A stretch of 54,967 nucleotides of DNA, from assembly GCA_964483665.1 (NCBI GenBank), contig CAZACP010000008.1:1-54967 (forward strand), in the 5' to 3' direction. Origin of the DNA: an uncultured Candidatus Saccharibacteria bacterium (GTDB taxonomy: Bacteria > Patescibacteriota > Doudnabacteria > UBA920). This document shows, piece after piece, positions 7,975-39,271 of this stretch. The position numbers and the translations under genes were made by a program. The first letter of the stretch is position 1. Every line of letters begins with the position of its first letter. Below the pieces are notes generated by a model. That model was not told the DNA's origin. It did not search any database and saw only the letters and a list, made by a program, of their open reading frames with translations.

Positions 7975-8322
7975 CTATTTCGGATGAAGTCGGTGATGTT
8001 TCTGCCCCTGACAATACCAATGCCCAGGACCGTAAACCACTCTATGAGCGAGCACCCACCCCCCGTCGGCCAAGACAGCTAAAACAAAGACGGGCACCAA
8101 AACAAGCAAAAACTTCCTGCTTAAAGCAACGCCAATATATTCCCTGTGGCCAACCCAGGGGTTTATAGAAAACAGGAACAACCACAAAGCGATTATTCCA
8201 ATAAAACCCAATACCACCTGAGTCCTAGGCATTGTGTCAATGGAAAAAGTTCTCCACCACACACGATAAAACGACACCGAAGCCGTAAGAGCCAAAGCAA
8301 GCATCAAGGTAATACTTTTCAT
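7975..8322 (-). CDS. Hypothetical membrane protein (cargo of trmB-1)
   Basis: 115-aa ORF with about 3 hydrophobic segments; SD GGGGAGG upstream. Confidence 0.7.
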   Translation of the reverse strand: MKSITLMLALALTASVSFYRVWWRTFSIDTMPRTQVVLGFIGIIALWLFLFSINPWVGHREYIGVALSRKFLLVLVPVFVLAVLADGGWVLAHRVVYGPGHWYCQGQKHHRLHPK

Positions 8323-8342
8323 TCTGCCTCCCCTTTTAAATA

Positions 8343-8714
8343 CTACTTCATTCTTCCTTCGCTAAAGTATCCGCCCTCGAGCAGTTCGAGGTACTCTTCG
8401 GGCGCAAAACAACCGATCGCGTATGGCACACATTTCCTCCGCTCGCTTTTCCGTACGGCTAAAATAAAACGGCCCTTGCCCCGAAACCTACTGCGCGTTG
8501 CCTGAATTTTGTAATCCTTATCTTCCAGGCGACTCTCCAAGTCAGCTTTCGCTTCGGCATAGTTCGAAAAAAGGCTAAGTTGAGTGGCAAGCGCCCGAAG
8601 GTTTGGAAATTGACTCCGCGAAGTATTCGGGCACATAAGCACAAACACCTCCGGCCCAAAAATCTCTGTAATTGCTGAAAGCATTGCGGCTTTTAGCTGT
8701 TTAGTCTTGTCCAT
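8343..8714 (-). CDS. Hypothetical protein (cargo of trmB-1)
   Basis: 123-aa ORF; SD AGGAGG upstream; divergent from trmB-1. Confidence 0.7.
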   Translation of the reverse strand: MDKTKQLKAAMLSAITEIFGPEVFVLMCPNTSRSQFPNLRALATQLSLFSNYAEAKADLESRLEDKDYKIQATRSRFRGKGRFILAVRKSERRKCVPYAIGCFAPEEYLELLEGGYFSEGRMK

Positions 8715-8837
8715 ATTTTCCCTCCTGTTTGGGAACTAACAATTTTTTCAAAATTTAAGTAAAATGTCAATTTTGTTGATTTATTTTATAGCATTTAATA
8801 AATTTGACTTAATTTTAAAGCTATTTTATAATTATTT

Positions 8838-8857
8838 TGTTGTCGAAATTTACAACA
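8838..8857. promoter_or_regulatory. Candidate operator TGTTGT-N8-ACAACA between the trmB-1 promoter and its start codon
   Basis: tgttgtcgaaatttacaaca lies just downstream of TTGACT-17-TATAAT. Confidence 0.6.
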
Positions 8858-8861
8858 TTAT

Positions 8862-9608
8862 ATGCATAATTTAAGCCTTATACCCCTGCTTAAACAGTCA
8901 GGGCTTAGTGAAAAAGAAGCCAAAATCTATCTGTCAGGCATAGAAATCGGCGCTGCCAGCATCCAAGACTTAGCCGAGCAAGCCAATATAAAAAGACCAA
9001 CCGCCTACGAAATTGTTGAAACCCTTGAAAAAAAGGGGTTATTTTCCGTAGTGCTTGAAGGAAAAAAGAGAAAATTTTTAGCTGAACAGCCGGAAAGAGT
9101 TTTGGCTTTATTTAAAATCCGTGAACAGGCGTTCGTGAAATCCTTACCTGAGCTAAATCTGTTATTTCAAACTGGCGGCAATAAACCAAAAGTCAAATTC
9201 TATGAGGGCACGGAAGGGTTGGAAGCTATGTATTTAGATACCTTAGAAAGCAAGCAAACAATATTAGTCTACGGCAATATAACGGAAATGTGGGGTGCTA
9301 TATCCCGCGACTTTAAGAAGGAATATATAAAAGCCCGGGTTAAAAAAAATCTTTGGTCAAAATGTATTGTGCCAAACACTCCCGAAACTATGGAATATAG
9401 CAAAAAAGACAAGGAAGAGTGTAGGCAAATGATATTCGTGCCAAAAGAAAATTTTAGCTTCCAAAACGAAATAGATATTTACAATGACAAAGTCGCCATT
9501 TTTTCATTTCCCGAAAAAATCGGCGTTATTATAGAAAGCAAAAAAATCGCGGAAACGCAAAAAATGATTTTTAACCTGGCCTGGCTAGGAGCCTTACAAG
9601 CAATTTAG
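8862..9608 (+). CDS. TrmB-family transcriptional regulator (paralog 1)
   Basis: N-terminal wHTH ([11 protein letters not shown]...[18 protein letters not shown]); C-terminal PKVKFYEG...EIDIYNDKV effector domain. Confidence 0.88.
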
Positions 9609-9627
9609 AAACTGTTATAATACCCCT

Positions 9628-10668
9628 ATGATAACGTCTTCCAACAACGAAATAGAAATAAGCGATATACCGGAAATTTCCCCAGCCGAAGAAGTTTTAA
9701 TCGAGCAAAATTTGCGTCCGCAAAGCTTTGACGAATATATTGGCCAAAAGGAAGTTAAGGACACTTTGTCCATTTTACTTACCGCGGCCAAACAGCGAAA
9801 AGAAAAAGTAGAACACTTGCTGTTTTACGGTCCGCCTGGCCTGGGCAAAACTACGCTGGCCAACATTGTGGCCAAAGAAATGGGCAGCAATATAAAAACC
9901 ACTTCCGGTCCGGCCATTGAGCGCGCCGGCGACTTGGCCTCTATTTTAACCAACCTGTCTGAAGGCGATGTTTTGTTTATAGACGAAATTCACCGCTTAA
10001 ATAAAGTTGTCGAGGAAGTTTTGTATCCGGCTATGGAAGATTTTGTTTTAGATATTGTCTTAGGCAAAGGACCGGGCGCCAGAAGCATAAGAATGGAGCT
10101 ACCTAAATTTACTTTAATTGGCGCTACCACCCGCATCGGGCTTTTGTCGAGTCCTTTACGAGACCGTTTTGGCGCAATTTTTCGCTTAGAATACTATTCG
10201 GAGGAAGACTTAATAAAAATAATAGACCGAAGCAGTAAAATTCTTAACTCCGAACTGGAAGCCGAGGCCTTGGCCGAACTAGCCAGGCGCTGCCGTTTTA
10301 CCCCGCGTATTGCCAACCGGCTTTTAAAGCGCGTAAGGGATTTTGCGCAAGTAAACGGCCATGTTAAAATAACCAAAGAAGTTGCTCTGCAGGCTTTAGA
10401 ATTGCTTAGAGTAAACGCGCTTGGCCTAGACAAAAACGACATTCGAATACTCGAAGCGCTCATTCAAAAGTTTAAAGGCCAGCCCGTAGGGCTTTCCACG
10501 CTCTCTGCCTCAACCGGCGAAGAAGAAGACACAGTCACCGACTTACACGAGCCATTCCTTTTACGCCTTGGGCTTATAACCAAAACCCCGCGCGGAAGAA
10601 TGGCAACAGAAGCCGCCTATAAACATTTGGGAATTAGCCTTCCCCCAGGCCAGCAAAAAATTTTGTGA
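9628..10668 (+). CDS. ruvB: Holliday junction branch migration helicase RuvB
   Basis: [39 protein letters not shown]. Confidence 0.98.
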
Positions 10669-11648: not shown

Positions 11649-12089
11649 ATGCCTACTACCGTTGTTGTTTCCGGAGGGTTTGACCCAATTCACATTGGCC
11701 ACATAGAAATGATGCAGGAAGCCAAAGCATTGGGCGATAAGCTAATTGTCATTGTAAACAATGACAATTGGTTAGTTGCAAAAAAAGGTTTTGCTTTTAT
11801 GCCCGAACAAGAGCGTTTGGCTATAGTAAAATCTATTAAACACGTAGACGAAGCGGTCTTAACCGGCCACGAAAAAAATCCAACCGACATGTCGGTTTGC
11901 AAAGAGCTGGAAGAATTAAAGCCGGACATATTTGCCAATGGCGGCGACCGAAAACCCGACGGCGACCCAGTTCCGGAAGTAGAATTATGCAACCGCCTAG
12001 GAATTAAATTAGTTTACAATATAGGTAAAAGTGGAAAAATCCAAAGCTCAAGCGACTTGGTAAAAAAAGCAGTACAAAACAAGGCCTAA
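11649..12089 (+). CDS. Cytidylyltransferase-family (HIGH motif) nucleotidyltransferase
   Basis: VVSGGFDPIHIGHI, FANGGDR, KIQSSS. Confidence 0.9.
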   Translation: MPTTVVVSGGFDPIHIGHIEMMQEAKALGDKLIVIVNNDNWLVAKKGFAFMPEQERLAIVKSIKHVDEAVLTGHEKNPTDMSVCKELEELKPDIFANGGDRKPDGDPVPEVELCNRLGIKLVYNIGKSGKIQSSSDLVKKAVQNKA

Positions 12090-12103
12090 CCGGCCTTGTT
12101 TTT
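12077..12103 (+). terminator. Terminator T1, overlapping the stop codon; duplicated at 13673-13699
   Basis: aaaacaaggcctaaccggccttgtttt. Confidence 0.85.
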
Positions 12104-12205: not shown

Positions 12206-12739
12206 TCATTTCTTGACCCACCTAATTGCGAAAATTACATTGATACGATTACGTTCAAACATCGGCGCCCCCCATAAAAACAATGGCGTGTAGGGAATTT
12301 TGTATTCTACCCTTGGACCAGTGCCCTTGTAGCGTTCGGTAAGAATACCGACTCTGAGCGATTTTGACACTTTTCTATTCAACTCGGTCTTCAACCAAAA
12401 CCCGCTGCCACCATATTCGGGAATAAATAAGACCGATGTTTTAGCATTACCCATCCAAACAAATCCTCCTGCCCGAGCCGGGTTCTTGGCCTCCTCTATC
12501 CCAACACCGCCTGCGAGCTGTAGCCAAGGCTTTGGGTCGTAGGTTAGTCCGCCGTAGCTTTCACTGTAGCCTTCTTGGGTTTGGAACCAAACAAACGCTC
12601 CGAGCTTCCCCGAAAGCCTTCCAGTAATCAACCCGTCGATCCTCGGTGTAACGCTGCCCGATGATACGAAAGTTCGTTGCTCAACCCACGTTTGCGCGAT
12701 TGCGGCGCAAGAAACTAACATCGCAAATAATAGCTTCAT
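12206..12739 (-). CDS. Secreted protein with amphipathic beta-strand pattern, possibly a beta-barrel (cargo of trmB-2)
   Basis: Start MKLLFAMLVSCAAIAQ at 12739 after SD GGAGG; about 10 alternating-pattern strands. Confidence 0.7.
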   Translation of the reverse strand: MKLLFAMLVSCAAIAQTWVEQRTFVSSGSVTPRIDGLITGRLSGKLGAFVWFQTQEGYSESYGGLTYDPKPWLQLAGGVGIEEAKNPARAGGFVWMGNAKTSVLFIPEYGGSGFWLKTELNRKVSKSLRVGILTERYKGTGPRVEYKIPYTPLFLWGAPMFERNRINVIFAIRWVKK

Positions 12740-12878
12740 AGATCCTCCGAACGAGATTCTTGTTAGCCAGCATCCTAGCGTAACCAGCAATAATGCCAAA
12801 AAAATGCATTAGTGTCAATAATTTATAGTCAAAAATAAATAAAATTGCTAAAATTAATCACAAATAAAGCAATAAAAC

Positions 12879-12897
12879 TGTTGATAGTTTTTCAACA
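12879..12897. promoter_or_regulatory. Candidate operator TGTTGA-N7-TCAACA over the trmB-2 -35 box
   Basis: tgttga tagtttt tcaaca; promoter TTGATA-17-TATTAT ends 6 nt before the ATG. Confidence 0.7.
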
Positions 12898-12915: not shown

Positions 12916-13686
12916 ATGATACCAGAACTCCTAAAACAACTTGGTTTTGGCGACAAGGAAATTGTGGTTTACACCACATTGCTTCAGCATGGCAAACTTA
13001 CTCCCGCGGCTTTGGGCAGGATTGCCAAAATAAATCGAACCACCGTTTACAGCACGGCTAAAGAGCTGGTGCAAAAAGGCGTAATTGCCGAAGACTTAGG
13101 CGGAGCTAATTTGTATTTGGTGGCAAAACCACCGTCAGATTTAGACAACTTATTAAAAAAAGAGGAAAAGCAGTTGCAAGAAAAAAAAGTCATAATAAAA
13201 AACGCCATAGAAGAACTCCAAGGCATTACAAAAGCCACACAGTACACTATCCCTAAAATTATTTTTAAAGCTCAGGAAGAAGTCGAAGCTCACCTTTATG
13301 AACAAACTCCTAAATGGGACGAGAGTATTTTAAAATACGATGGTATTTGGTGGGGCTTTCAGGATCACACTTTTGTCCAGCATTACGAAAAATGGATAGA
13401 TTGGTACTGGCAAACCGGTTCGAATCCGGCAACGAAGTTAAAACTTTTAAGTAACGAGGTTGCAGAAAAAATTAAAAAGACCAAATATGAAAGAAGGCAA
13501 ATTTCTTTTTGGAAAGAAAGCCATAACTTTAAAACCACCACCTGGATACTGGGCGACTACGTTGTTATGATAGTCACAAATCAGCGCCCGCACTATTTAG
13601 TGGAAATTCACGACGCAACGCTTGCCCACGACCAACGAGAAGTCTTTAAAGGTATTTGGAAAACACAAATAGAAAACAAGGCCTAA
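12916..13686 (+). CDS. TrmB-family transcriptional regulator (paralog 2)
   Basis: wHTH LGFGDKEIVVY...INRTTVY; C-terminal domain clearly paralogous to 16320-17090. Confidence 0.88.
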   Translation: MIPELLKQLGFGDKEIVVYTTLLQHGKLTPAALGRIAKINRTTVYSTAKELVQKGVIAEDLGGANLYLVAKPPSDLDNLLKKEEKQLQEKKVIIKNAIEELQGITKATQYTIPKIIFKAQEEVEAHLYEQTPKWDESILKYDGIWWGFQDHTFVQHYEKWIDWYWQTGSNPATKLKLLSNEVAEKIKKTKYERRQISFWKESHNFKTTTWILGDYVVMIVTNQRPHYLVEIHDATLAHDQREVFKGIWKTQIENKA

Positions 13687-13699
13687 CCAGCCTTGTTTT
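13673..13699 (+). terminator. Terminator T1', copy of 12077-12103
   Basis: aaaacaaggcctaaccagccttgtttt, 26/27 identical. Confidence 0.85.
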
Positions 13700-13880: not shown

Positions 13881-14624
13881 TTAAAGCTTTCCGGGCATAA
13901 CGCGTCGGAGGAATTCTTGTGTTCGCGGGTGCTGAGGACTGCCCAGCACCGCATTCGCCGCACCGCTCTCAACAACGTGGCCGTGGTCAAGAAAAATTGC
14001 CTGGTTAGCAATCTCTTTGGCAAACCCAATATGGTGAGTTGCCATTACCACGGTCGTACCGGTTGATACTACGTCTTTGACCACATCAAGCAATTCCCAG
14101 ACAAGTTCCGGGTCAAGCGCGGAGGTGATTTCGTCGAGAAGCAGAACTTTGGGCTGTATTGCCATAGCCCGCGCGATTGCTACTCGCTGAGCTTGACCGC
14201 CGGAAAGAGTTGCTGGATAAGCATTTTCTTTTTCCGACAGCTTGACCTTGATAAGCAGTTCGCGCGCGCGGCCTTCGGCTTCAGAACGCCTCATTTTCAG
14301 AATCTGTGTGGGCCCTAGCGTGAGGTTTTCCAAAACCGTTAGGTGTGGCCAGAGGTTTAATCCTTGGAACACCATGCCTACGCGCTGACGCAGTAGTCCA
14401 TTGACCTTAGAGCCAGGCGTGATCTGGAATTCTCCGTCTAGAAGACGAATTGCCCCGGAGTCAATCGGCGTAAGGCCGTTTAAGCAACGAAGAAGTGTTG
14501 TTTTGCCGGAGCCACTGGGTCCAACCAGGGCGAGAACCTGACTCCTCTCGAGTCCGAACGATATTTTGTTCAGTACCTGGAGCTGACTAAAGCTCTTTGA
14601 CACCGAACTTACTTCAACTAACAC
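13881..14624 (-). CDS. Polar amino acid ABC transporter ATP-binding protein (GlnQ-like)
   Basis: GPSGSGKTT, LSGGQAQR, LLLDE; GTG start at 14624. Confidence 0.93.
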   Translation of the reverse strand: MLVEVSSVSKSFSQLQVLNKISFGLERSQVLALVGPSGSGKTTLLRCLNGLTPIDSGAIRLLDGEFQITPGSKVNGLLRQRVGMVFQGLNLWPHLTVLENLTLGPTQILKMRRSEAEGRARELLIKVKLSEKENAYPATLSGGQAQRVAIARAMAIQPKVLLLDEITSALDPELVWELLDVVKDVVSTGTTVVMATHHIGFAKEIANQAIFLDHGHVVESGAANAVLGSPQHPRTQEFLRRVMPGKL

Positions 14625-15255
14625 GAAAAACCTTCCTTTCCAGCCGCCTAACTGAATATTCAAGCGGCAGAATGATTGCTAAATAGAGAATCGCAAGAGT
14701 TGTGTAAACCTCAAACGACTGTTGCGTTAGGGCAATTATACTTCCGCCCCTGTTCAGCAATTCTGCAACACCAATAGTCGACGCCAAAGACGTCAGCTTA
14801 ATGGTTGTGACATACTCGCCAAACAGGTTAGGCAGCATATTTCGTAAGGCCTGTGGTAAAACTATATACCACAAAACCTGCCGAGAATTCATGCCCATTG
14901 AAAGTGCGGATTCACGCTGAGAAACTGAAACCGATTCCAGCCCCGCGCGAATGTTCTCCGCGTAAAAAGCCGCGCCGTTTAAAGCAAGGCCTACAGCAGA
15001 AGAAAAAAACGCCGAGAAAGCAACTCCGGTCAGCATCGGCAAGCTGTAGTAAATCCAGAGCAATACCACCAGTGGCGGTACTGCGCGAAAAGCCACAACA
15101 TACCCGACGACAAGAGCCCGCAATACCACAAACCGATAACTCTGAACCCAAACTAGCGTGACACCAAGAATCGTGCCAAACATAACCGCTAGGCACGACA
15201 GCCCCACGGTAGTGAGCAGGCCATAGAGCCAGGCCTGCCAAAACTGAAACAACAT
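14614..15255 (-). CDS. Polar amino acid ABC transporter permease
   Basis: AENIRAGLESVSVSQRESALSMGM (EAA loop), IVLPQALR. Confidence 0.93.
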   Translation of the reverse strand: MLFQFWQAWLYGLLTTVGLSCLAVMFGTILGVTLVWVQSYRFVVLRALVVGYVVAFRAVPPLVVLLWIYYSLPMLTGVAFSAFFSSAVGLALNGAAFYAENIRAGLESVSVSQRESALSMGMNSRQVLWYIVLPQALRNMLPNLFGEYVTTIKLTSLASTIGVAELLNRGGSIIALTQQSFEVYTTLAILYLAIILPLEYSVRRLERKVFRVS

Positions 15256-15266
15256 ATCTTTTCCTT

Positions 15267-16082
15267 TCAACGAATGTCCGATTGCCAGTTAGCGCCGTAC
15301 TTCTCTTCTAACTGTTTAAGTACGCCGCGAGTCTTAAGAAAGTGAAGCGAGGTGTCTAAAAACCGCAGCCAGTCCGGGTCACCGTAACGAACCGCGAACG
15401 AAGCCGGATTTAAGGCGAACTGCTTTTTTGCAAACAAATCCACCAAGTCGCTGCGGGTGGCTGCAAACTTTGCGATTTGATTGCTGTCAGCAATTGCCAC
15501 ATCGGCGTTGCCCGTAACCACATCGAGCATAAATCGCGAAATCTCTGCGGCCTCAACATTGGTACGGTTGAGCGTAGCCTTCTTGAACTCGGCGGTGGCA
15601 AACAAGTCGCCCGCTTCGCCTGTTGCCAAAACCACCCTTACCCCTGGCTGGTCAAAATCGGAAATCAGACCGAATTTCTCAAATCTGCTTCCGCGCCTAA
15701 CCAAAGCACTAAGTCCCATGTACAACACCGGTTGAGTAAACGCGATTGATTGAGCTCTCTCGATATTAGCAAACATAGGAGCCACAATTACATCCGCGCG
15801 TGCCGACTGCAAGGTTGCGGCCGCATTGCCATAGGTGGTTTCCGTCCACTCGATGCGTGCATTCATGCGCTCGGCGATAATTTCCATCGCCTCGACCAAA
15901 TGCCCGCTATATTCTCCGGTAGTCGCGTTCTTAATGACCATAGGAGAATCTATGACCGTAGCCGCACGGATAACGCGTGTGCGCCGCACTTGGTCGAAAA
16001 TTGACTCCCCCTGCTGCCCCGTTCTGGCGCAACCAGAAAGAATCAAAAATGACACCAAAACTAACAAAAGAATTCTATTCAT
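15267..16082 (-). CDS. Polar amino acid ABC transporter substrate-binding lipoprotein (SBP family 3)
   Basis: Lipobox LSGC; IERAQSIAFTQP; SD GGGAGG before the ATG at 16082. Confidence 0.9.
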   Translation of the reverse strand: MNRILLLVLVSFLILSGCARTGQQGESIFDQVRRTRVIRAATVIDSPMVIKNATTGEYSGHLVEAMEIIAERMNARIEWTETTYGNAAATLQSARADVIVAPMFANIERAQSIAFTQPVLYMGLSALVRRGSRFEKFGLISDFDQPGVRVVLATGEAGDLFATAEFKKATLNRTNVEAAEISRFMLDVVTGNADVAIADSNQIAKFAATRSDLVDLFAKKQFALNPASFAVRYGDPDWLRFLDTSLHFLKTRGVLKQLEEKYGANWQSDIR

Positions 16083-16193
16083 TGTGCCCTCCCTTGGGCT
16101 TGTCAAAGTTCTCTGTTCCGCAAAATAACGGAAAGGTTATTGTTATATTTAACTGTCACAATAACCAAGTATAATACCATATTTTCAACAATA

Positions 16194-16300
16194 TGTCAAT
16201 AATAATTCAACAATTTCCTTAATTTTGCTTTAAACAAAAGTAAAAATATTGTTGATTAAACTTCAACAAATATAAATTTGTTGTTGACAATTAATCAACA
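16194..16300. promoter_or_regulatory. Divergent promoters with three TGTTGA-N7-TCAACA-type operators
   Basis: Perfect sites at 16250-16268 and 16282-16300, a variant at 16194-16212. trmB-3 promoter TTGACA(16284)-17-TATAAT(16307); cargo promoter TTGACA(16199-16194)-17-TATTAT on the minus strand. Confidence 0.75.
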
Positions 16301-16319: not shown

Positions 16320-17090
16320 ATGATAGCAAACTTACTTAAAAATTTTGGTCTAAACGAAAAAGAGGCTCAAATTTACTTGGCAGTTTTAAAACAAGGTAGG
16401 GCTGCGCCTGCCCATATTGCACAAGTTACTAAAATAAACCGCACCACGGTTTACAGCGTGGCTAAAGAGCTTATAAAAAAAGGCTTTTTGCTTGAAGACC
16501 TGGCAGGGGGGAGCACTTCGCTAGTTGCGGTTCCACCTCAGGAATTAAAATTCTTGGTTCAAAAAGAAGAAAAGGAGCTGGAAAATAAAAAGCAGCTCAT
16601 AAGCCAAATGGTTAAGGAGCTGGAAAATTTTACCAAAGATTCCAAATACGCCATTCCTAAAATTACTTTTATACAAGAACAGGACTTAATGGATTACTTA
16701 TATAAACGCGGTGATGAGTGGCATAAAAGCATTATGAAGTACGACGGCATACTGTGGGGTTTTCAGGACCATACCTTTGCCGAACATTATGAAAAGTGGA
16801 TAGAGTGGGAGTGGAAAATTGGAGGGCCGAAAGATTTACGCCTGAGACTTTTTTCCAACGAGTCCGAAATCGAAGAAAAGAACAAACAAAAAGGCAAAGA
16901 GTTTGAAAGGCGTATAATAAAATACTGGAAAAAACCAAACCAATTTACTGCTTCTGTTTGGGTGCACGGGGATTATTTAGTTTTTGTCCAAACTCAAAGC
17001 CGGCCTCATTATTTAGTGGAAATTTATGATGTCTTGTTAGCCGAAAATATGAGGCAATTTTTTGCTGGCGTGTGGGATGAAATAAAATAA
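16320..17090 (+). CDS. TrmB-family transcriptional regulator (paralog 3)
   Basis: FGLNEKEAQIY...INRTTVY; shares MKYDGILWGFQDHTF-type motif with paralog 2. Confidence 0.88.
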   Translation: MIANLLKNFGLNEKEAQIYLAVLKQGRAAPAHIAQVTKINRTTVYSVAKELIKKGFLLEDLAGGSTSLVAVPPQELKFLVQKEEKELENKKQLISQMVKELENFTKDSKYAIPKITFIQEQDLMDYLYKRGDEWHKSIMKYDGILWGFQDHTFAEHYEKWIEWEWKIGGPKDLRLRLFSNESEIEEKNKQKGKEFERRIIKYWKKPNQFTASVWVHGDYLVFVQTQSRPHYLVEIYDVLLAENMRQFFAGVWDEIK

Positions 17091-17099: not shown

Positions 17100-17153
17100 C
17101 ATGACCAACGAGAAGTCTTTAAAGGCATTTGGAAAACACAAATAGAAAAATAA
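17100..17153 (+). repeat. Orphan copy of the trmB-2 3' end (HDQREVFKGIWKTQIEK*)
   Basis: 48/50 identical to 13627-13676; both differences synonymous. Confidence 0.9.
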
Positions 17154-17192: not shown

Positions 17193-18338
17193 TTATGCTT
17201 TTAGTTCCACCTCGCTTGGGGAAACGGGCATTATTACCACGTCAAAACCTTCTTCTCTTAAGCTGGTATAAATTCTATTAAATTCAACTTCTTGCATACG
17301 TTCTTCTGGCGCTTCGGTTAGTAGCGGACGAAGCTGTATTACTGTATTTTCTGGTCCAAACCCCTTTTGTTTAAAAACCTCGGGTCTTATTTCCGTTTCA
17401 TTATTGCACACAAAAGTTAAGGTTGGTTTTCTAACTGTTTTATAGCCTTTATTTATTTGCGCATCCACAATTTGTTGGAACTGCTCAGCTATTTCATTCA
17501 GTGGCAACAATAATTTTTCCATCCTATTTCCTTTATGCTCCTCAGTCTCACCTGGCTTATCCGGTCGTTGATTATACACATGCAAAGCGCGCTTTTCTTC
17601 GTTAGTGCTCTGAGCAGAAACCTGGACACTTATTACCGGCTCCCCATTATAATCTGGACTGCTATAAATATCAGCAACAACCTGCATAGGGGTCTTTCTG
17701 TCTTTATTGACTTTTCCCGCAACAGTAGAAATTCTCACCCTTGAAATTGTGTTGCTAAAATCTTTACAAACCATTTCCAAAATATCTTTTAAATGAGGAT
17801 TAGGAGTCGCGTCACCACTCCCAACAAAAGCAATGCCAAATTTCTTTCCCTCTAGCAAAGGACTAACCTTTTTAGCTTCCCTCAAGCTTTCTTCTATTAA
17901 AAGCCTTATTTCTTTTGGACTTAACTCCTTGGTCTTTTTACCTTCATGTCCTTCTGCGTGAGCCGCAAAAGGACACCCCTTGCAATCATATGGGCATATC
18001 CCCCCCTGCAGGGGTAAAAGCAATGTTGGAGAGTTTTTATCTATATAAGCTTCTATGACAGCCCTTCCGTTTTCGGGATCATTTTTATAATTAAATAGTT
18101 CCCAAGCTGCCTTGGACTTTAAGCTCCTTACCCCTGTATAACCGGCCATAACCGCGGTTGAATAATGCAAATGCTGAACATCCCCTGAGCCAGACCTGGT
18201 TTCTTTTTCGTGCCAGCGCATCAAAACACTGTCATCGATAGAAAATTTTTCTATGGCCTCTTCCCCGTCTTTTAGCTGTATTGTCTCAGAATGCGCTGGG
18301 CTATCGCTAATAATTTTAAATTCTGGATGTTCCTTCAT
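17193..18338 (-). CDS. Radical SAM protein, RlmN/Cfr-like scaffold lacking the catalytic cysteines
   Basis: CPYDCKGC (CxxxCxxC); motif order matches RlmN by eye; start overlaps the rsmE stop. Confidence 0.75.
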   Translation of the reverse strand: MKEHPEFKIISDSPAHSETIQLKDGEEAIEKFSIDDSVLMRWHEKETRSGSGDVQHLHYSTAVMAGYTGVRSLKSKAAWELFNYKNDPENGRAVIEAYIDKNSPTLLLPLQGGICPYDCKGCPFAAHAEGHEGKKTKELSPKEIRLLIEESLREAKKVSPLLEGKKFGIAFVGSGDATPNPHLKDILEMVCKDFSNTISRVRISTVAGKVNKDRKTPMQVVADIYSSPDYNGEPVISVQVSAQSTNEEKRALHVYNQRPDKPGETEEHKGNRMEKLLLPLNEIAEQFQQIVDAQINKGYKTVRKPTLTFVCNNETEIRPEVFKQKGFGPENTVIQLRPLLTEAPEERMQEVEFNRIYTSLREEGFDVVIMPVSPSEVELKA

Positions 18339-19057
18339 TGGTTTAAAAAATTACTTATAATGCTTAAGCTCGACAACGCGGCGGTTTCGGCTCTTAAAAG
18401 TATAGGACCTAAAGTTATTGGCGTGCAGTTAGGAAGCTTTTTAAAACCACCCACCTCCTCTACTGTAAAGCCACCTTCCGGACCCACAGCGATTGAACAA
18501 GATTTAAATGATTGATCAAGATTTTTTGGTGACTGTCCGGCAATGTCACAAAGAAACAATTGACCGTATTCTTTTGAAGATTTTATTACATCATCGACGC
18601 TCTTTAGATACTCCAATTCTGGTGGATGAACACGGTCGCTTTGTTTGGCTGCTTCCCAAAGAATTTTTTGCCAGCGGTCGTTCTTTTTTTTAAAAAGTTC
18701 TTCGGTTAATTTAGTAGCTGTGTTTTGAGAGTTAAACAAAATTATTTTATGTGCGCCAAGCTCGGTAGATTTTTGGAATATAAAGTCCAAGGCTTTTTCA
18801 TTAACATAGCCTTGAAACAGAGTAATTTTAACCTTTGGTTCCGGCGGCGTTTTTATTTCGCTAAAGGCTTTTAATTTCAAAGAATATCTATCTATATCTA
18901 TAATTTCTACCAAATATCTTTTCTCGTCTTTCCCCTGCAAATTAAATTTTTCGCCCTTCTTCATTCTGCGGGCAAGCAAAATATGCCTGGCCTCATCGCC
19001 AGACAATTCAACACTTGCTCCTTCTGCTAGCTTTTGATCTGTTAAAAAATAAGACAC
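18335..19057 (-). CDS. rsmE: 16S rRNA m3U1498 methyltransferase RsmE
   Basis: EARHILLARR, QKSTELG, EAAKQS, VGPEGGF, LGPILLRAETA. Confidence 0.95.
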   Translation of the reverse strand: MSYFLTDQKLAEGASVELSGDEARHILLARRMKKGEKFNLQGKDEKRYLVEIIDIDRYSLKLKAFSEIKTPPEPKVKITLFQGYVNEKALDFIFQKSTELGAHKIILFNSQNTATKLTEELFKKKNDRWQKILWEAAKQSDRVHPPELEYLKSVDDVIKSSKEYGQLFLCDIAGQSPKNLDQSFKSCSIAVGPEGGFTVEEVGGFKKLPNCTPITLGPILLRAETAALSSLSIISNFLNQ

Positions 19058-19127
19058 GAGAATTATGAATTAGCAAATATATAAGAATGACAAGAATATA
19101 ACTGCGTTTTTATTTTTGATCATTTCT

Positions 19128-19433
19128 TTAATATTCAACTTGTATTGCAAACACCGCGGTCGAGCCTAAAAATTGATTTAGGGCGTAAATTATTCGCTGT
19201 GACAAGACTTTTATTTGGTACGCGACCTCTTTGCTTAAACAGGCCACCAAAAGCACGCCTTTTTCAAAATGTATAGCTTTGCTAGTTTCGGCCGCCTCAG
19301 ATACAAAAGCCCTAACAATGTCTTGCCAGGCTTTTAAAAGCTGGTGTTTTCTAACTGCGGCATCAAGCTTATAATTTTTTGAAGTGGTTTTTAAAACCTT
19401 TTCGATTTTTGTAAATTTGTGGTAGGAAGACAT
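19128..19433 (-). CDS. dciA: DUF721/DciA-family protein
   Basis: WQDIV...KGVLLVACLS..AYQIK pattern; position next to recF. Confidence 0.75.
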   Translation of the reverse strand: MSSYHKFTKIEKVLKTTSKNYKLDAAVRKHQLLKAWQDIVRAFVSEAAETSKAIHFEKGVLLVACLSKEVAYQIKVLSQRIIYALNQFLGSTAVFAIQVEY

Positions 19434-19459
19434 ATTTTTATTTTTGGCGGGTAATTTTT

Positions 19460-20551
19460 TTAAGCCACCTCTTCGCTTTCTAATGCAGGGCTTAGCGTAA
19501 CATGCTGGGCCGGCATTTCAAGCGGGTGGGTAGTGGTAATAAATGTTTGAAATTTATTTTGTAAAAACTTTAACAAAAAGGTTCTTCTCGTATCGTCTAA
19601 CTCGGAAAGCACATCGTCTAAAAGCAAAATCGGTTTTTCGTCCCCTTGGCTTAAATATTCTAGTTCTAAAACTTTCATGGCTAACACTTGGCTTCTTAGT
19701 TCCCCCCGGGAGGAAAATGGCGACAAATAAAGTCCCTCGCTCTGTAAATAAAAATCATCCCTATGAGGCCCCACCAGACATGTGGCGGCAAGTCGTTCTT
19801 TTGGCAAAGCTTTTTCCAATTTTAATTTAAAAGCAGTAGAAATTTCCTCCAAGGTCTCTCCCGGCAAAGACTGGTACACAACTTCAACCGGCCTATGAAA
19901 ACCGGAAATTAAAGAATAAATTTCTGCTATGCGGTTGTTTAAATAATCACAAAATGTTTTTCTTTCTTTTATTATCCTGCTGCCCAAAACCACCATTTGT
20001 TCGTTCCAGGACAAAAGCTCCTGCTCACTTCCACCTATCCCGGACCGCAAATTTTGCAAAATTTTGTTCTTATAAAACATGGCTTTTTTGTACTCGCCCA
20101 AATCTTCCAAGTACTGCGGATTCTTTTGTGACAAAACCATGTTCAAATATTTTCGCCTGCCCTCGGGTTGCTTGGTAAACATATCCACGTCGGTAGGTTC
20201 AAAAATCACCACCCTAACAAACCCTTGGGCTTCGGCTTTTCGTTTTTTTACTCCGTCTACCAAAAAATTCGCGTAAATTTTTTCCCGTTTTTCCAAAAAA
20301 ACTTTTATAATATGGCTTTCCCCGCCTTTTTCCACCTCAAACTCCACTTCGGAATTTTGGGTTTCTTTTAGAAAAATAAATTCATTATCATCCCTAAAAG
20401 ATTTAAACAAAGAGGCAAAATAAACAGATTCTAAAAGATTAGTCTTCCCAACAGCGTTAGGCCCGGAAAGCACCACAGTAGTGCTGTTAATTTCCAGATC
20501 CAAATCCGGATAATTGCGAAAGTTTTTTAATTTTATTCTTGTTATTTTCAT
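19460..20551 (-). CDS. recF: DNA replication/repair protein RecF
   Basis: KNFRNY, GPNAVGKTNLLES, GPHRDD, SRGELRS, LLLDDVLSELD; start moved to MKIT. Confidence 0.95.
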   Translation of the reverse strand: MKITRIKLKNFRNYPDLDLEINSTTVVLSGPNAVGKTNLLESVYFASLFKSFRDDNEFIFLKETQNSEVEFEVEKGGESHIIKVFLEKREKIYANFLVDGVKKRKAEAQGFVRVVIFEPTDVDMFTKQPEGRRKYLNMVLSQKNPQYLEDLGEYKKAMFYKNKILQNLRSGIGGSEQELLSWNEQMVVLGSRIIKERKTFCDYLNNRIAEIYSLISGFHRPVEVVYQSLPGETLEEISTAFKLKLEKALPKERLAATCLVGPHRDDFYLQSEGLYLSPFSSRGELRSQVLAMKVLELEYLSQGDEKPILLLDDVLSELDDTRRTFLLKFLQNKFQTFITTTHPLEMPAQHVTLSPALESEEVA

Positions 20552-20640: not shown

Positions 20641-20646
20641 GTATTA

Positions 20647-24285: not shown

Positions 24286-24286
24286 T

Positions 24287-25382: not shown

Positions 25383-25383
25383 A

Positions 25384-32346: not shown

Positions 32347-32838
32347 CTATTTAATATGTCTAGTCTTAGAGTGAAAAAAACCCGCACACATAGCAACCGC
32401 AAGTGCGTCTGCGGCGTCGTCTGGCTTAGGCACTTTTTTTAAGTTAAAAGTTTTTTGCACCATATATTGAACTTGTTTTTTTTCTGCTTTGCCATAACCG
32501 CAAATAAAGTTTTTTACTTGTAAGGGTGTGTATTCGTAAATAGGAATTTTATTTTTTTCGCAAATGTATAACGTAAGCCCTCGGGCTTGTGTGACTGTAA
32601 TAATAGTTTTTTGGTTGGTAGTAAAAAATATTTTTTCAATACCTACTGCTGCTGGTTTATGCTTCTCGATGATGTTAGATAGGTCATCTGCCAAAATTTT
32701 TAACCGTTCTGCATCGGAAAGTTTTTTATCGGTAGCAATCACTCCAAAATCAACCAGCTTGGGCTGGTTTGATTTAGCTATTTCGATAATACCATAGCCG
32801 GTTGTAGCGGTACCGGGGTCAATTCCGAGGATGATCAT
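32347..32838 (-). CDS. ruvC: Holliday junction resolvase RuvC
   Basis: ILGIDPG, IEKIFF, EYTPLQVK, DDAADALAVA. Confidence 0.97.
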   Translation of the reverse strand: MIILGIDPGTATTGYGIIEIAKSNQPKLVDFGVIATDKKLSDAERLKILADDLSNIIEKHKPAAVGIEKIFFTTNQKTIITVTQARGLTLYICEKNKIPIYEYTPLQVKNFICGYGKAEKKQVQYMVQKTFNLKKVPKPDDAADALAVAMCAGFFHSKTRHIK

Positions 32839-33181
32839 TTATTTTGAAATTTATAACAATAATATCGCCGCCTTTATAATTAGGATAAAGTCTTTTCCAA
32901 ATGCCCTTAGCGTTATCTTTTGTAATGTTGCTGCCAAACCTACGTGTATCATTCACTTGTAATAGGTAATCAAGGCTTTTATAGGTTTCGATAGATGTGG
33001 TAATAACCATGACTGAGTCTTGAGAAGATTTAAAAATAATTTTTTCTCCTATTATGGGCTTTATTGGAATGCTAAAGCCAGGTCTTGCTTCTGCTGTTTT
33101 TGACCCTTTTTTTATTTGATCCAAAAATTCTTGCTTAACAAAAATTGTCTGAATTCCTTTTTCTTGCTCACTACGTTCCAT
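32819..33181 (-). CDS. ASCH/PUA-like domain protein
   Basis: IFVKQEFLDQIKKGSKTAEAR motif. Confidence 0.75.
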   Translation of the reverse strand: MERSEQEKGIQTIFVKQEFLDQIKKGSKTAEARPGFSIPIKPIIGEKIIFKSSQDSVMVITTSIETYKSLDYLLQVNDTRRFGSNITKDNAKGIWKRLYPNYKGGDIIVINFKINDHPRN

Positions 33182-35715: not shown

Positions 35716-35759
35716 ATATACATTATAGCAGATCCAAAGAATTTTTGCAAGAGTAAAAA

Positions 35760-36542
35760 TTATTTATTTGAATTTCTATCAAGTCTTTTTGCTTCCGCCC
35801 ACGCAAGGTTATAAATTGTTTTCATAGCGGCACTTATTTCTTTGCTTTCTATAATTATGCCAAGTTTTTCTTTCCAAGAAGCTATCATTACTTTGTTATC
35901 ATAAATATTTATTTCGGGTGAAAAGTAAACTTTGTCAGCCGGTACGAGCGCGGATTCCCTAGCTTCCTCCGCGTCTTTGCCCGCTCTTTCTACCCCAGCT
36001 TCGTTGGAAGGAACTATGGCTTTTATATGAATGCCTTTATTGGTTCTTCTTTTGTAATATTTAGGAAAATAATCAGGCAAGGCTTTGTGCATTTCGTTTA
36101 CGTTAGCATAAGCTAAAATGGTTTCGTGCGATGCTAGTGTGTCCTCATAAACTTGCTCAACACCCTTCATGCCCTCATAGAACATAACTTTCGGCCTATC
36201 TGTAATATTGTGTAGAGATTTAAGCTGTGGCACCAAATTTTGTGCTTGTAAAAGCTCTTGTTGTTTTGTTTCTATTTCATCTTGAATTTTTTTTAATATT
36301 TTGTCCGGGCTTTCAGCGACGTATTCCTGAAGCGGTTCTTTGCCTGAAATACTAACCAAGCCTTTTGAAATTAAAGACTCTAAGATGTCATAAACCGTAG
36401 TTCTGTTTATACCCGACTTTCTGGCAATTGGCGAAACAGTTCTTTTGCCTAATTCCAATAAAGCCAAATAGACCAAGGCTTCTTTTTCAGAAAAACCAAT
36501 CGAAATTAGACTTTTATATAGAGGAGAGTTAATGTCTAGCAT
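35760..36542 (-). CDS. TrmB-family transcriptional regulator (paralog 4)
   Basis: Start MLDINS at 36542, 6 nt after TATACT; GFSEKEALVY...INRTTVY; PKVMFYEG; EINIYDNKV. Confidence 0.88.
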   Translation of the reverse strand: MLDINSPLYKSLISIGFSEKEALVYLALLELGKRTVSPIARKSGINRTTVYDILESLISKGLVSISGKEPLQEYVAESPDKILKKIQDEIETKQQELLQAQNLVPQLKSLHNITDRPKVMFYEGMKGVEQVYEDTLASHETILAYANVNEMHKALPDYFPKYYKRRTNKGIHIKAIVPSNEAGVERAGKDAEEARESALVPADKVYFSPEINIYDNKVMIASWKEKLGIIIESKEISAAMKTIYNLAWAEAKRLDRNSNK

Positions 36543-36653
36543 ATATAAAGTATATGCTATTTCTTGAATTGTGTCAATAGCTTTCCACAAAAAATATAAA
36601 ATATAGAAATTTAGCCTAAATAAAACCTTTTTACACAATGAAAATGACGCTTA

Positions 36654-36685
36654 ATATTGACAATATATTAAATATACTGTATTAT
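36654..36685 (+). promoter_or_regulatory. Cargo promoter TTGACA-17-TATTAT with palindrome ATATTG-A-CAATAT over the -35
   Basis: Read directly at 36654-36666 (palindrome), 36657-62 (-35) and 36680-85 (-10). Confidence 0.6.
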
Positions 36686-36775
36686 TACACGTTAAAACAA
36701 AAATCACCCGGCGGGGTTTAAACGTATAAGAAAATTAGTTTAGTTTTTTTGAAAGAGTGAGTTATAAGGAGGTTT

Positions 36776-37186
36776 ATGAAGTTAACCATGAATACGGCTT
36801 TGGTTATTGCGATCCCTTGCCCCCACTGCGGGAGGATTCAGGGCCCGCACAAACCTGGATGTTTACAAACCCAACTTTTAGAGCTGTGCACAAAGAGAAG
36901 GCATCTTTCATGCCCCCTCTGCGACAAGAACGCCGTGGATGTTAACAATAACGATTATTGGGAATGCCGCGAGTGTTGCGCCCAGTTCAGGAACGGAAAA
37001 TTGGATGTTTCGCGTTTGTCTTCGAAGGACGGCAAACAGCATATGATAATTGATTTTAATGAGGACTGCGTCTATCCCGTGCTTCTTTTGTCCAGAAAAG
37101 GGCGCGGCAATTTTCCTATCGATCGAGCGATTCGTAAAATCGAATGCAAGATCGAAAGAAAGGCGAACAAACAAGAAGGCAAATAA
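36776..37186 (+). CDS. Cys-rich, probably Zn-binding hypothetical protein (cargo of trmB-4)
   Basis: CPHC..HKPGC and CPLC...CREC motifs; SD AAGGAGG. Confidence 0.75.
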   Translation: MKLTMNTALVIAIPCPHCGRIQGPHKPGCLQTQLLELCTKRRHLSCPLCDKNAVDVNNNDYWECRECCAQFRNGKLDVSRLSSKDGKQHMIIDFNEDCVYPVLLLSRKGRGNFPIDRAIRKIECKIERKANKQEGK

Positions 37187-37268
37187 GAGCCTTGTCCCCC
37201 ACAAATTTAAACCCCGCTGCTTGCAAGCGGCGAAGCAAAAGATAGGTGATCCGTACGGATTCCTGTCT

Positions 37269-38045
37269 TTATTTTTTACCGTCCTGTCTTTTCGCCTCAA
37301 GCCACGCCAGTTCAAATATCTTTTTCATCGCCTCGGCAATTTCGGCACTTTCTATGGTGATACCAAGTTCTTCGCGCCAAGAGGCTATCATAATTTTGTT
37401 GTTGTAAATATTAATTTCTGGAGTAAAGGAATATTTGTCGGCAGGGACCAGCGCGGTTTGCCTTATTTGAATTTTGTCGTCTTTTCTAAGTTCCCTTGCG
37501 GCTGGGGTGTCCGGAAAAATTGCGCGAATAGGAATTTTCTTTTTTGCACGTCTAAAGTAATAGTCCGGAAAATATTCAGGCAAAGCCACGTTGTTGTCTT
37601 CAACATGGGCAAAAGCCCGAATAGGCTCCTTGGAAGTTAAGGTGTCTTCGTATACTTCTTTTATGCCTTCCATTCCTTCATAAAATCTAACCTTTGGCCT
37701 GTCTTTTACATTATGAATACTTTTAAGTTGCGGGATTATGTTTTTTGCTTGTTCTATAAACGCTTGGTTTTTTTCTATGTAGTGGTTAAACATAGCAATT
37801 ATTTTGTCTGGGTTTTCCGCCGCGTATTCTTGTTTTGGCTCTTTGCCGGAAATATTTACTACCCCCCTGGTAAGTAACGAATTTAAAATATGGTAACAAG
37901 TAGTTCTGTTTATAGCTGCTCTTTGTGCTATTTGTGATACAGTACCCTTGCCAAGTTCGAGTAAAGACAGATAAATGTCTGCTTCTTTGCTCGAGAAACC
38001 TAAAGTGATAAGCGAATTTTGAAGTATAAAATGTTGTTCTTGCAT
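37269..38045 (-). CDS. TrmB-family transcriptional regulator (paralog 5)
   Basis: GFSSKEADIY...INRTTCY; close paralog of 35760-36542. Confidence 0.88.
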   Translation of the reverse strand: MQEQHFILQNSLITLGFSSKEADIYLSLLELGKGTVSQIAQRAAINRTTCYHILNSLLTRGVVNISGKEPKQEYAAENPDKIIAMFNHYIEKNQAFIEQAKNIIPQLKSIHNVKDRPKVRFYEGMEGIKEVYEDTLTSKEPIRAFAHVEDNNVALPEYFPDYYFRRAKKKIPIRAIFPDTPAARELRKDDKIQIRQTALVPADKYSFTPEINIYNNKIMIASWREELGITIESAEIAEAMKKIFELAWLEAKRQDGKK

Positions 38046-38050
38046 ATAAG

Positions 38051-38063
38051 GTCTAATTTAGAC
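38051..38063. promoter_or_regulatory. Candidate operator GTCTAA-T-TTAGAC between the trmB-5 promoter and its start codon
   Basis: Perfect palindrome downstream of TTGACA-17-TATACT on the minus strand. Confidence 0.55.
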
Positions 38064-38232
38064 TTAACTAGTATAGTTATGTTTTAATTTTGTGTCAATT
38101 TTTTTGCACAAAAATTTATTATTTTAAATATATCTTATAAACAAAAGCAAAAATGAATTTATTTTGACCATAAATCTTGACAGTATATGAAATATATGTT
38201 AAATTAACGGGTCTCAAAAGGAGGAGACTAGT

Positions 38233-38817
38233 GTGGAGACCCTGCTTCAAATTTGGGGAGGGTTGTTCTACACCCTCAACAAGATTTTCTTTGCTTTCTC
38301 TGAACAAGCCAAAGCACGGGGTAAGCTGGTTTTGTACAAACAATGGCGCGTTGGTTCTTGGGTCTTGTACCTGCTTGGTCTGCCGGCTTGGGTGATTCTT
38401 CTGGCGGGCAAGCATGCGTGGATAGCTGCGGCTTTGGAGGCCGGCGGCGGTCCGGCGATGCTGCTTGGTCTGGTAACCGCTTTGCGAGGTACTGCCAAAG
38501 ACCCGCCTAAGTGGTTAGACCGTCTTGCCTTTTACTGCATTGTATTGGGTCTTGGGTATAGCGTGTATGACTTTGGGGGAATTAACACTCTTGCTCAATG
38601 GTTGGAGCTTGGCCTTGCTTCAGGCTATTTGGTCGGAACCTACAAGCTGGCGCGGGAACACAGTAGCGGGTATCTTTGGTACTTGTTAATGCACATATCT
38701 TGCGGCTGGCTAATGCTGGTTTCTGGCTACTACGGCTTGGCTTTCCAGCAAGGCCTGTCATTGGTGTTTATTACGGACGCTTATCGAATCTCAAGGAGAG
38801 GGAACAATGAAAAGTAG
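38233..38817 (+). CDS. Polytopic membrane protein (cargo of trmB-5)
   Basis: About 6-7 TM segments; SD AGGAGG; GTG start; GC-richer than neighbours. Confidence 0.75.
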   Translation: METLLQIWGGLFYTLNKIFFAFSEQAKARGKLVLYKQWRVGSWVLYLLGLPAWVILLAGKHAWIAAALEAGGGPAMLLGLVTALRGTAKDPPKWLDRLAFYCIVLGLGYSVYDFGGINTLAQWLELGLASGYLVGTYKLAREHSSGYLWYLLMHISCGWLMLVSGYYGLAFQQGLSLVFITDAYRISRRGNNEK

Positions 38818-39271
38818 AATTGTCGCGGGACAGCATAGCTTGTCTCTATGTGAGGAGAAAAAACTATACAAACTAGCTGATACGCAACTCGAAGATAAAA
38901 TTCGAGAGACGCTTCCTGTGCTTGTTTCTGCTCATCTATCGCAGTTTAGCGAGCTGCAATCGGAAATCAAACTGTTCAACTCCTTGCTCTGGATTTACAT
39001 TCAGCGGAAAGGGGTTCTGGAAAGGGTAGCCGACAATGTTCGTTTGTTGCTTTGGGTCCAATACCGAATTTCAAGCATTAACGCATTTGCTGCAAAACTT
39101 GGATTAAACCCGTCCTTTGTTGGCGGACTCCTTGGAGGGGAAGAAGCTAAATTGGGTGGTTGGAACTTGGCGAATTTGATGAGGATATGCGGGGTGTTGA
39201 AGGTAAGTCCGGAGGTTTTGTTGTTTGCGGATTTGGCAGCAGCGGTTCGTGCGGTGTCGGGGACGAAATAG
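38807..39271 (+). CDS. Protein with C-terminal XRE-type helix-turn-helix
   Basis: SINAFAAKLGLNPSFVGGLLGG...NLANLMRICGVLKVSPEVLL. Confidence 0.65.
   Translation: MKSRIVAGQHSLSLCEEKKLYKLADTQLEDKIRETLPVLVSAHLSQFSELQSEIKLFNSLLWIYIQRKGVLERVADNVRLLLWVQYRISSINAFAAKLGLNPSFVGGLLGGEEAKLGGWNLANLMRICGVLKVSPEVLLFADLAAAVRAVSGTK

Follow-up and report, generated by a model that had tools for sequence, protein, structure and literature searches.

Bacterial neighbour regulators of the LysR, TetR and MarR families are typically transcribed divergently from their targets, autoregulate from the shared spacer and are gained and lost together with accessory operons. In archaea, the trehalose-maltose cluster that encodes TrmB lies on a segment of ~16 kb shared by horizontal transfer between Pyrococcus furiosus and Thermococcus litoralis, which offers a precedent for a regulator of this family moving with a transporter. 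The Patescibacteria (candidate phyla radiation, CPR) form a very large, mostly uncultured branch with tiny genomes and few transcription factors and, to our knowledge, almost nothing has been established about gene regulation in these organisms; in the literature searched, no paper joins TrmB with Patescibacteria, the candidate phyla radiation or Saccharibacteria. Here we analyse a stretch of 54,967 nucleotides (nt) from an uncultured Candidatus Saccharibacteria bacterium placed in Doudnabacteria (contig CAZACP010000008.1; hereafter, the window), in which five genes for TrmB-family proteins (trmB1 to trmB5) are, as a prior reading made without database searches (the sequence-only reading) had noticed and as holds for all five, each transcribed divergently from different accessory genes (hereafter, cargo). 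We propose that these genes probably encode autoregulated local repressors of TrmBL2-type architecture that travel with accessory operons by recombination.

The assignment of five paralogs to the TrmB family, made earlier from the sequence, is borne out by profile searches: all five open reading frames (ORFs) match Pfam TrmB (PF01978) with 42.7–67.5 bits against a cutoff of 25.6 (E values of 5e-11 to 1e-18), and their homology extends over the full length of ~250–260 amino acids. The paralogs form two subgroups, {1,4,5} and {2,3}, with identities of 58% between trmB4 and trmB5, 40% between trmB1 and trmB4, and 48% between trmB2 and trmB3. A profile of the five covers TrmBL2 in the Protein Data Bank (PDB; 264 amino acids) end to end and TrmB (3qph) only at residues 7–132. 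The AlphaFold model of trmB4 (pLDDT 92) predicts a winged helix, a coiled-coil helix at residues 80–110 and a beta-rich alpha/beta domain at residues 118–258; its best Foldseek matches are TrmBL2 (5bpd; E value of 3.6e-14), then TrmB (3qph), and its C-terminal domain resembles PLD folds. The C-terminal sugar-binding beta-barrel of TrmB and TrmBL1 (proteins of ~340 amino acids) is absent, the paralogs ending at 248–260 amino acids, and the NCBIfam scores lie far below the equivalog cutoffs for TrmB/TrmBL1 (20–47 bits against 500–650) and for TrmBL2 (NF041141; 21–29 bits against 530). The five proteins are accordingly TrmB-family members of TrmBL2-type architecture rather than orthologues of the sugar-sensing TrmB.

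Each of the five regulators faces a different partner. Upstream of trmB1 (8862–9608, plus strand), a divergent TrmBL2-type paralog that shares only 42% identity with its best relative in a set of 185,579 species genomes, lie two hypothetical genes on the minus strand: cargo1a (8343–8714), a 123-amino-acid ORFan with an AGGAGG Shine–Dalgarno sequence (SD) and a GC content of 0.49 for which a search of 5.8 billion proteins returned no cluster other than its own, and cargo1b (7975–8322), a 115-amino-acid predicted membrane ORF (GGAGG SD; GC 0.47). The partner of trmB2 (12916–13686, plus strand) is the hypothetical gene cargo2 (12206–12739, minus strand; GGAGG SD; GC 0.49), the start of which is probably the ATG at 12739 rather than the called start at 12799. 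Next to trmB3 (16320–17090, plus strand) lies cargo3 (13881–16082, minus strand; ORF call to 16106), an operon of SBP_bac_3, BPD_transp_1 and ABC_tran genes, that is, an amino-acid-type ABC transporter with a substrate-binding protein (SBP), a permease and an ATPase (GC 0.48–0.52), in which the SBP gene (15267–16082) has a GGGAGGG SD and the corrected start at 16082 agrees with a 271-amino-acid database protein. On the other side of the window, trmB4 (35760–36542, minus strand) faces cargo4 (36776–37186, plus strand), a Cys-rich ORF of 136 amino acids with the SD AAGGAGGT and a GC content of 0.47, and trmB5 (37269–38045, minus strand) faces the SD-led gene of a PnuC-like membrane protein, cargo5a (38233–38817, plus strand), followed by cargo5b (38807–39271, plus strand), an SD-led ORF with a weak helix–turn–helix (HTH) match.

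Regulators and partners differ in composition and in the way their translation appears to begin. The cargo, most of which had been noticed to look GC-richer than core genes, is richer in GC (0.46–0.52) than the window (0.407) and the trmB genes (0.37–0.40), and the first cargo genes bear SDs of the AGGAGG type, in line with the earlier description of strong GGAGG-type sites. Also accurate was the description of every trmB as having a textbook promoter and no SD: consensus scores are 12/12 for trmB3, 11/12 for trmB1, trmB4 and trmB5, and 10/12 for trmB2, and in both regions no sigma-70-like site is stronger than the promoters of trmB and cargo genes. As only 6–7 nt separate the -10 box from the ATG of trmB2, trmB3 and trmB4, these three look leaderless; the distance is 29 nt for trmB1, the promoter of which (TTGACT-17-TATAAT) lies with its palindrome at 8804–8857 (plus strand), and 24 nt for trmB5. 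An SD is nearly absent from the ~40 core genes of the window; starting without an SD is the default of this genome and not a speciality of trmB, and it is the SD-led cargo that forms the unusual class. Loss of the anti-SD motif has been described for part of the Parcubacteria (PMC9297842). Leaderless initiation may be common in the window genome: a TATAAT box stands 6 nt before the start of several core genes (for example, 41404–42138 and 32819–33181), and a promoter-like site that would yield a leaderless ruvB transcript lies in the 3′ end of trmB1 (9593–9628; CTTACA-17-TATAAT, TG-extended, 6 nt before the ATG).

The same architecture recurs beyond this genome. In a survey of Patescibacteria loci, found with an alignment of the {4,5,1} subgroup and with single proteins, 80 of 99 TrmB-like genes (81%) are divergent from their upstream neighbour, compared with 38% for all genes. 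When only divergent pairs separated by 60 nt or more are compared, the partner is SD-led in 49/113 TrmB pairs (43%) and in 30/320 controls (9%; odds ratio 7.4, p = 4e-14), and strong -35 and -10 boxes end 4–10 nt before the start in 62/113 trmB genes (55%) against 8/320 controls (2.5%; p = 1e-34). The family of trmB4 and trmB5 comprises at least 2673 clusters in the collection of 5.8 billion proteins, with orthologues that are 58–80% identical across Patescibacteria phyla (Doudnabacteria, Nomurabacteria, Paceibacterota, Jacksonbacteria, Kerfeldbacteria, Uhrbacteria and others). Although the 80 divergent neighbours fall into 45 unrelated clusters, certain pairs recur and co-diverge: PnuC-like proteins with trmB4/5-type genes (7 loci), cargo2 with trmB2-type genes (3 loci, homologues adjoining such genes in L002 and L139) and the ABC transporter with trmB3 (2 loci). 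In six further loci, trmB4/5-type genes have a homologue of cargo5a as their partner, and one such homologue matches Pfam NMN_transporter.

Two further observations came from these loci. B12-binding radical-SAM enzymes, sometimes fused to a PnuC-like membrane domain, and plain radical-SAM enzymes are recurrent cargo of trmB4-type genes (L008 7240–9183, L157 1751–3619, L086 4356–5786 and L112 4587–5807). Locus L139 (1–11298) holds four TrmB-like genes in 11 kb, each beside periplasmic-binding-protein or SD-led genes, and is denser than the window.

Each divergent spacer had been said to hold a palindrome at a promoter; this is correct, and the palindromes are specific to the trmB promoters. The motif TGTTGA-N7-TCAACA has three exact copies in the window (0.14 expected by chance), all of them at the promoters of trmB2 and trmB3: one candidate operator at 12879–12897 (plus strand) over the -35 box and spacer of trmB2, which is conserved in orthologues, and two at 16250–16268 and 16282–16300 (plus strand), the second of which overlaps the -35 box of trmB3. 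This palindrome of trmB2 and trmB3 is conserved in four orthologous loci. TTGTG-N12-CACAA occurs exactly in the window only at the -35 boxes of trmB4 (candidate operator at 36569–36590) and trmB5 (38090–38111), and trmB1 has the palindrome TGTTGT-N8-ACAACA at 8838–8857, between its -10 box and ATG. Upstream regions of the trmB4 family share TTTTGTGGAA..ATTGACACAA, an inverted repeat with the -35 box inside it, after which come TATACT and then 6–9 nt to the ATG; TTGT-N14-ACAA is matched in 33 of 78 of these regions, compared with 0.2 in shuffles. The notion of a dedicated operator for each pair did not survive, as trmB4 and trmB5 share one operator type with each other and with orthologues across many CPR phyla, whichever cargo these adjoin.

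Conserved palindromes at fixed promoter positions also bear on the idea that these proteins coat compositionally odd DNA largely irrespective of sequence, in the manner of TrmBL2 or of xenogeneic silencers. The closest solved structure is indeed that of the chromatin protein TrmBL2, and the cargo is compositionally atypical; nevertheless, known silencers target AT-rich DNA, whereas the cargo here is GC-richer than its surroundings (0.46–0.52 against 0.407), and several diverged paralogs in one genome suit specific regulators better than a single architectural protein. We regard such coating as very improbable.

Other repeats were found in the spacers. Between the -35 and -10 boxes of the cargo4 and cargo5 promoters stands an AT-rich palindrome (36660–36680, TTGACAATATATTAAATATACTGT; 38185–38204, TTGACAGTATATGAAATATATGT), which was considered as a general operator and rejected given that, among 114 spacers, it is confined to these two paralogous modules and does not occur in the other 112; a leftover of module duplication or a local operator is the probable explanation. 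On the cargo3 side (16135–16166 and 16183–16213), the SBP leader holds a palindrome with 16-nt arms (GGTTATTGTTATATTT/AACTGTCACAATAACC), and two direct TCAACAA half-sites flank the -35 box of cargo3; these may be secondary TrmB3 sites. In the cargo5a leader (38210–38253), the GGAGG of the SD lies inside the hairpin GTCTC-aaaaggagg-AGAC, and the start codon falls within a more extended pairing, GGGTCTC...GAGACCC; such folding may exert translational control. At the gathering threshold, Rfam finds only tRNAs in the window and no riboswitch or known RNA in the cargo leaders.

Movement of the modules can be followed at the level of strains. A sister strain, ~90–99.6% identical to the window and known from contigs of independent public wastewater runs, lacks three of the segments. 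The 1.7-kb unit of module 1 (7913–9622; terminator hairpin, cargo1b, cargo1a, spacer and trmB1) is missing from a sister contig that joins 7912 to 9623 with 55 nt between them (four runs), and both forms coexist in X8. Identity around this site is mosaic, the left flank having 8 differences in 1913 nt, ruvB 106 in 1039 nt and the stretch beyond 6 in 427 nt, a pattern that bears the signature of an imported recombination tract. A 4.3-kb island (35754–40053) that carries trmB4, cargo4, trmB5, cargo5a, cargo5b and a HigA/HigB-like pair is bounded exactly by the stop codon of the dihydrofolate reductase (DHFR) gene and the -35 box of the next operon, and in a sister contig the three letters CTA are all that separates 35753 from 40054. 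At the third site, a sister contig joins 13845 to 16319 with 483 nt between, such that the ABC operon and the spacer are gone and trmB3 is kept from its ATG; forms with and without the ABC operon coexist in X3 and X4.

The centre of cargo2 (12328–12813) is a different case: the sister strain has 484 unlike letters in a segment of the same length, while trmB2 stays ~90% identical, so that cargo2 varies as a hyper-divergent allele and not by an indel. The toxin–antitoxin pair (HigB-like, Pfam Gp49; HigA-like, HTH_3) occupies 39393–40032 on the minus strand, at the edge of the 4.3-kb island, and a strong promoter-like site (TTGACA-17-TATATT) is found at 39727–39699.

Related species differ at the same sites along a backbone that is collinear in L001–L006. 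Module 1 is missing in five of them (L001–L005), in which a VanW gene is followed directly by ruvB. The gene trmB2 is syntenic in L001, L002 and L003 at 70–76% identity and faces a small ORF, a xanthine/uracil-type permease and a methyltransferase in L001 and L003 and a cargo2 homologue in L002. The block of the ABC operon and trmB3 is absent at the window position in L001–L005, as is the radical-SAM gene (17193–18338) that is convergent with trmB3. In the collinear relative L215 (62–85% protein identity), the trmB3 orthologue (74% identical) is divergent from the same ABC operon (72, 58 and 72% identical) at another site, next to gyrA; the site between the homologues of 35097 and 40039 is empty, with neither trmB4 nor trmB5 there; and an additional TrmB gene with an SD-led 142-amino-acid ORF stands where the window has none. 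The trmB4 site is occupied by one trmB4-type gene in both L084, with a 465-amino-acid SD-led cargo, and L088, with an EamA transporter. The comparison of close relatives that had been suggested, for presence, absence or swapping at fixed sites, thus has a positive outcome. The proposal that the pairs are exchangeable units holds in part, that is, for gain, loss and relocation; trmB2 and trmB3, on the other hand, stay in place while their cargo changes or goes.

These comparisons also weigh on the simplest reading, a chance or purely vertical layout of ordinary regulators. Synteny of the 3′ sides of trmB2 and trmB4 in several relatives would fit it, as would the commonness of divergent regulator–target pairs in bacteria; yet the statistics on orientation, SDs and leaderless starts, the clean indels between strains and the relocation of trmB3 with its ABC operon leave us to consider it extremely improbable.

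Repeats mark some of the module boundaries. A terminator hairpin (AACAAGGCCTAACCGGCCTTGTT; DR-A) occurs in the window in two copies only (12063–12102 and 13660–13699, plus strand), 1597 nt apart, which flank cargo2 and trmB2. Its second copy is overlapped by the first copy (13627–13676, plus strand) of a 50-nt direct repeat, DR-B, which forms the 3′ end of the trmB2 coding sequence; the second copy of DR-B (17100–17149, plus strand), 48/50 identical (96%) and 3473 nt away, is a non-coding remnant that begins 10 nt past the trmB3 stop codon and reads HDQREVFKGIWKTQIEK and then a stop. Together, the two copies bracket exactly the terminator, the ABC operon and trmB3. In agreement with the earlier statement on integrases, no domain of an integrase, transposase or recombinase was found in those window ORFs that were scanned or that could be matched to annotated homologues.

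Alternatively, the pairing could be structural and not regulatory, with TrmB regulating only itself or distant targets and the promoter-proximal side or the 3′ end of trmB serving as a preferred landing site for new DNA. Conserved operators are present only at trmB promoters, the divergent neighbours belong to 45 unrelated clusters, the cargo beside trmB2 differs from species to species and the 3′ end of trmB2 is a recombination junction, all of which agree with such a landing site. However, specific pairs recur and co-diverge in distant genomes (7, 3 and 2 loci), the enrichment of SDs among the partners argues for a functional class and not for random landings, and the TCAACAA half-sites flank the cargo3 promoter; we judge this alternative to be quite unlikely.

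The sequence-only reading had a different emphasis, namely that the genome may tame horizontally acquired foreign genes as plug-in pairs, each with a dedicated TrmB and a private operator. Several features are compatible with that view: in a genome poor in SDs, the cargo has them and is also GC-richer, modules vary between strains, the two subfamilies have different operators, and close orthologues are lacking for trmB1, as are relatives of the ORFan cargo1a. The relatives of the cargo, where detectable, are nonetheless not in foreign phyla. A pattern scan of the species genomes found no relative of the ABC SBP, and a protein search found nine (clusters), one of which is annotated as Patescibacteria, while the closest comes from a contig that is collinear with the window and the others are metagenome sequences; for cargo2 and cargo5a, homologues turned up nowhere but in the surveyed loci, mostly annotated as Patescibacteria. 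Domestication of foreign genes therefore finds no support in where the cargo relatives occur, as these are in Patescibacteria or on metagenome contigs only, or are absent. Moreover, L215 likewise combines GC-rich, SD-led ABC genes with a trmB3 whose GC is ordinary and host-like, with no amelioration, and the retention of this contrast implies that it is maintained within the module, which speaks against recent import; it suggests selection on expression or translation. As the operator of trmB4 and trmB5 is also common to orthologues in many phyla with any cargo, and trmB2 and trmB3 outlast the exchange or loss of their cargo, we consider the taming of foreign genes unlikely.

We instead favour the local autoregulated repressors that we propose above, which could operate as follows. 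Each TrmBL2-type dimer would bind the palindrome over its own promoter and repress itself, and this repression may extend to the divergent cargo promoter 60–120 bp away. A ligand, presumably sensed by the PLD-like C-terminal domain, would relieve it. The regulator mRNA would be leaderless or SD-less, and the cargo mRNA long-leadered with a strong SD. The regulator–cargo pairs constitute most of the flexible gene content around the origin of the genome and are gained, lost and re-sited without an integrase, presumably through homologous or homology-facilitated illegitimate recombination after DNA uptake, with trmB genes and terminator hairpins sometimes acting as recombination anchors.

Several points weigh against this model. 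Control of the adjacent cargo by TrmB is suggested through guilt by association only, by the recurrent co-diverging pairs. TrmBL2, the closest solved relative, is a chromatin protein of low specificity with no known ligand. No operator is common to cargo promoters across loci, the conserved operators being at trmB promoters, and because trmB4 and trmB5 share an operator type, cross-talk is to be expected rather than one-to-one wiring. Neither module 1 nor the trmB4/trmB5 island has flanking repeats, and no excision joint at the 50-nt repeat was found in contigs from the runs of the window strain, although contigs cannot show rare variants. The ~150 loci of the survey were selected via TrmB similarity and are phylogenetically non-independent, and a simple ORF caller supplied their gene starts. 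As for the expression of cargo and trmB, the metatranscriptome contigs carry no strand information, belong mostly to the sister strain and have flat depths.

A bolder form of the proposal, which we put forward only tentatively and consider possible but doubtful, is that in SD-poor Patescibacteria a leaderless, tightly autoregulated TrmBL2-type repressor of one conserved type, together with its operator and promoter, forms a portable adaptor for SD-led cargo genes of many unrelated kinds. The repressor coding sequence and the terminator would serve as homology anchors for integrase-free capture and exchange of cargo via natural transformation, and regulator and cargo would be split between two modes of initiation.

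Should TrmBL2-type proteins prove to be standard local switches of accessory genes, regulons and operators would become predictable from sequence in a branch of life in which regulation is little known, TrmBL2-type genes would mark the flexible gene pool in metagenome-assembled genomes, and the family would be a natural source of orthogonal parts (repressors, operators and promoters). That regulators look leaderless and cargo is SD-led provides a lead on how translation initiation is partitioned where most genes lack an SD.

The genomic setting is that of a replication origin. The window encodes dnaA (21959–23317), dnaN, recF, a DciA-like gene, yidC and a KhpB/Jag-like gene, and its cumulative GC skew has a minimum near 21 kb; on the basis of this gene set, the skew and the RuvB matches given below, the window represents the replication-origin region of a Patescibacteria genome of ~41% GC. 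Within the origin region (18335–25857), rsmE-like, dciA-like, recF, dnaN and dnaA genes lie on the minus strand, followed by a gap of 630 nt (23318–23946) and then, on the plus strand, small ORFs, yidC and the KhpB/Jag-like gene. TrmB modules are found on both sides of the origin, and the span from 7975 to 39271 that holds them also includes ~18 kb of core genes (dnaA, dnaN, recF, yidC and others). The density of TrmB-like genes, five in 55 kb, is about 3–6 times that of other CPR loci. The RuvB of the window (9628–10668) is 91% identical to its best match and 73–77% identical to the next four, and all of these top five matches are from metagenome-assembled genomes labelled Candidatus Saccharibacteria, Doudnabacteria or Patescibacteria. 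Public runs that contain the window are wastewater and activated-sludge metagenomes.

Among the other genes of the window are those of a type IV pilus/type II secretion ATPase and, at 2730–3155, of a PD-(D/E)XK nuclease-family protein (PDDEXK_3), with few ORFs in the first 2.7 kb. The window ORF at 32819–33181 is similar in size to two ORFs of L215 beside the YebC homologue, which are annotated as 23S_rRNA_IVP/bAvd-like. A variable stretch (42219–44630) has no counterpart in L215, where the trmB3–ABC pair occupies this position; it holds an ORF (42219–42842) with a GC content of 56% and the SD AAGGAGGT, two ORFs without a Pfam match and a tRNA-Ile(TAT) gene (43969–44045). A sixth, hidden TrmB was sought beside the GC-rich SD-led ORF of this stretch, and a comparison of 43135–43746 with the TrmB alignment by hhalign was negative. 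A reading of the cargo as defence systems was likewise dropped, as PADLOC matched no cargo to defence families and found only a resemblance of the TrmB winged HTH to the HTH domains of Csa3/CasR.

Of the described systems, the closest in structure is TrmBL2 (Thermococcus kodakarensis TK0471 and Pyrococcus; PDB 5bpd and 5box), which belongs to the same class of ~260 amino acids and has the same order of winged helix, coiled coil and PLD-like domain without the sugar barrel; however, at ~20% identity, it is an archaeal, abundant chromatin or global repressor protein with low sequence specificity, whereas the window proteins are bacterial, present as several paralogs and encoded beside conserved specific palindromes and local cargo. 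The TrmB of P. furiosus and T. litoralis is likewise a TrmB-family repressor encoded beside the ABC transporter that it controls, but differs in its sugar-binding subdomain (338 amino acids), its archaeal origin, its different operator and the insertion sequence (IS) elements that flank its segment. Integron cassettes and small genomic islands similarly place small accessory units at fixed sites, several in a row; here, by contrast, there is no integrase and no attC or attI site, each unit has its own promoter and regulator, and the junctions suggest homologous or illegitimate recombination. Unlike the neighbour regulators of the LysR, TetR and MarR families, the present system relies on TrmBL2-type proteins in Patescibacteria, pairs a systematically leaderless regulator that has a near-perfect promoter with an SD-led target in an SD-poor genome, and combines one highly conserved regulator type and one operator with many unrelated cargo genes. 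A local regulator that travels with its operon is already known, and what would be new here is the family, the lineage and the dichotomy of initiation rather than the category of system.

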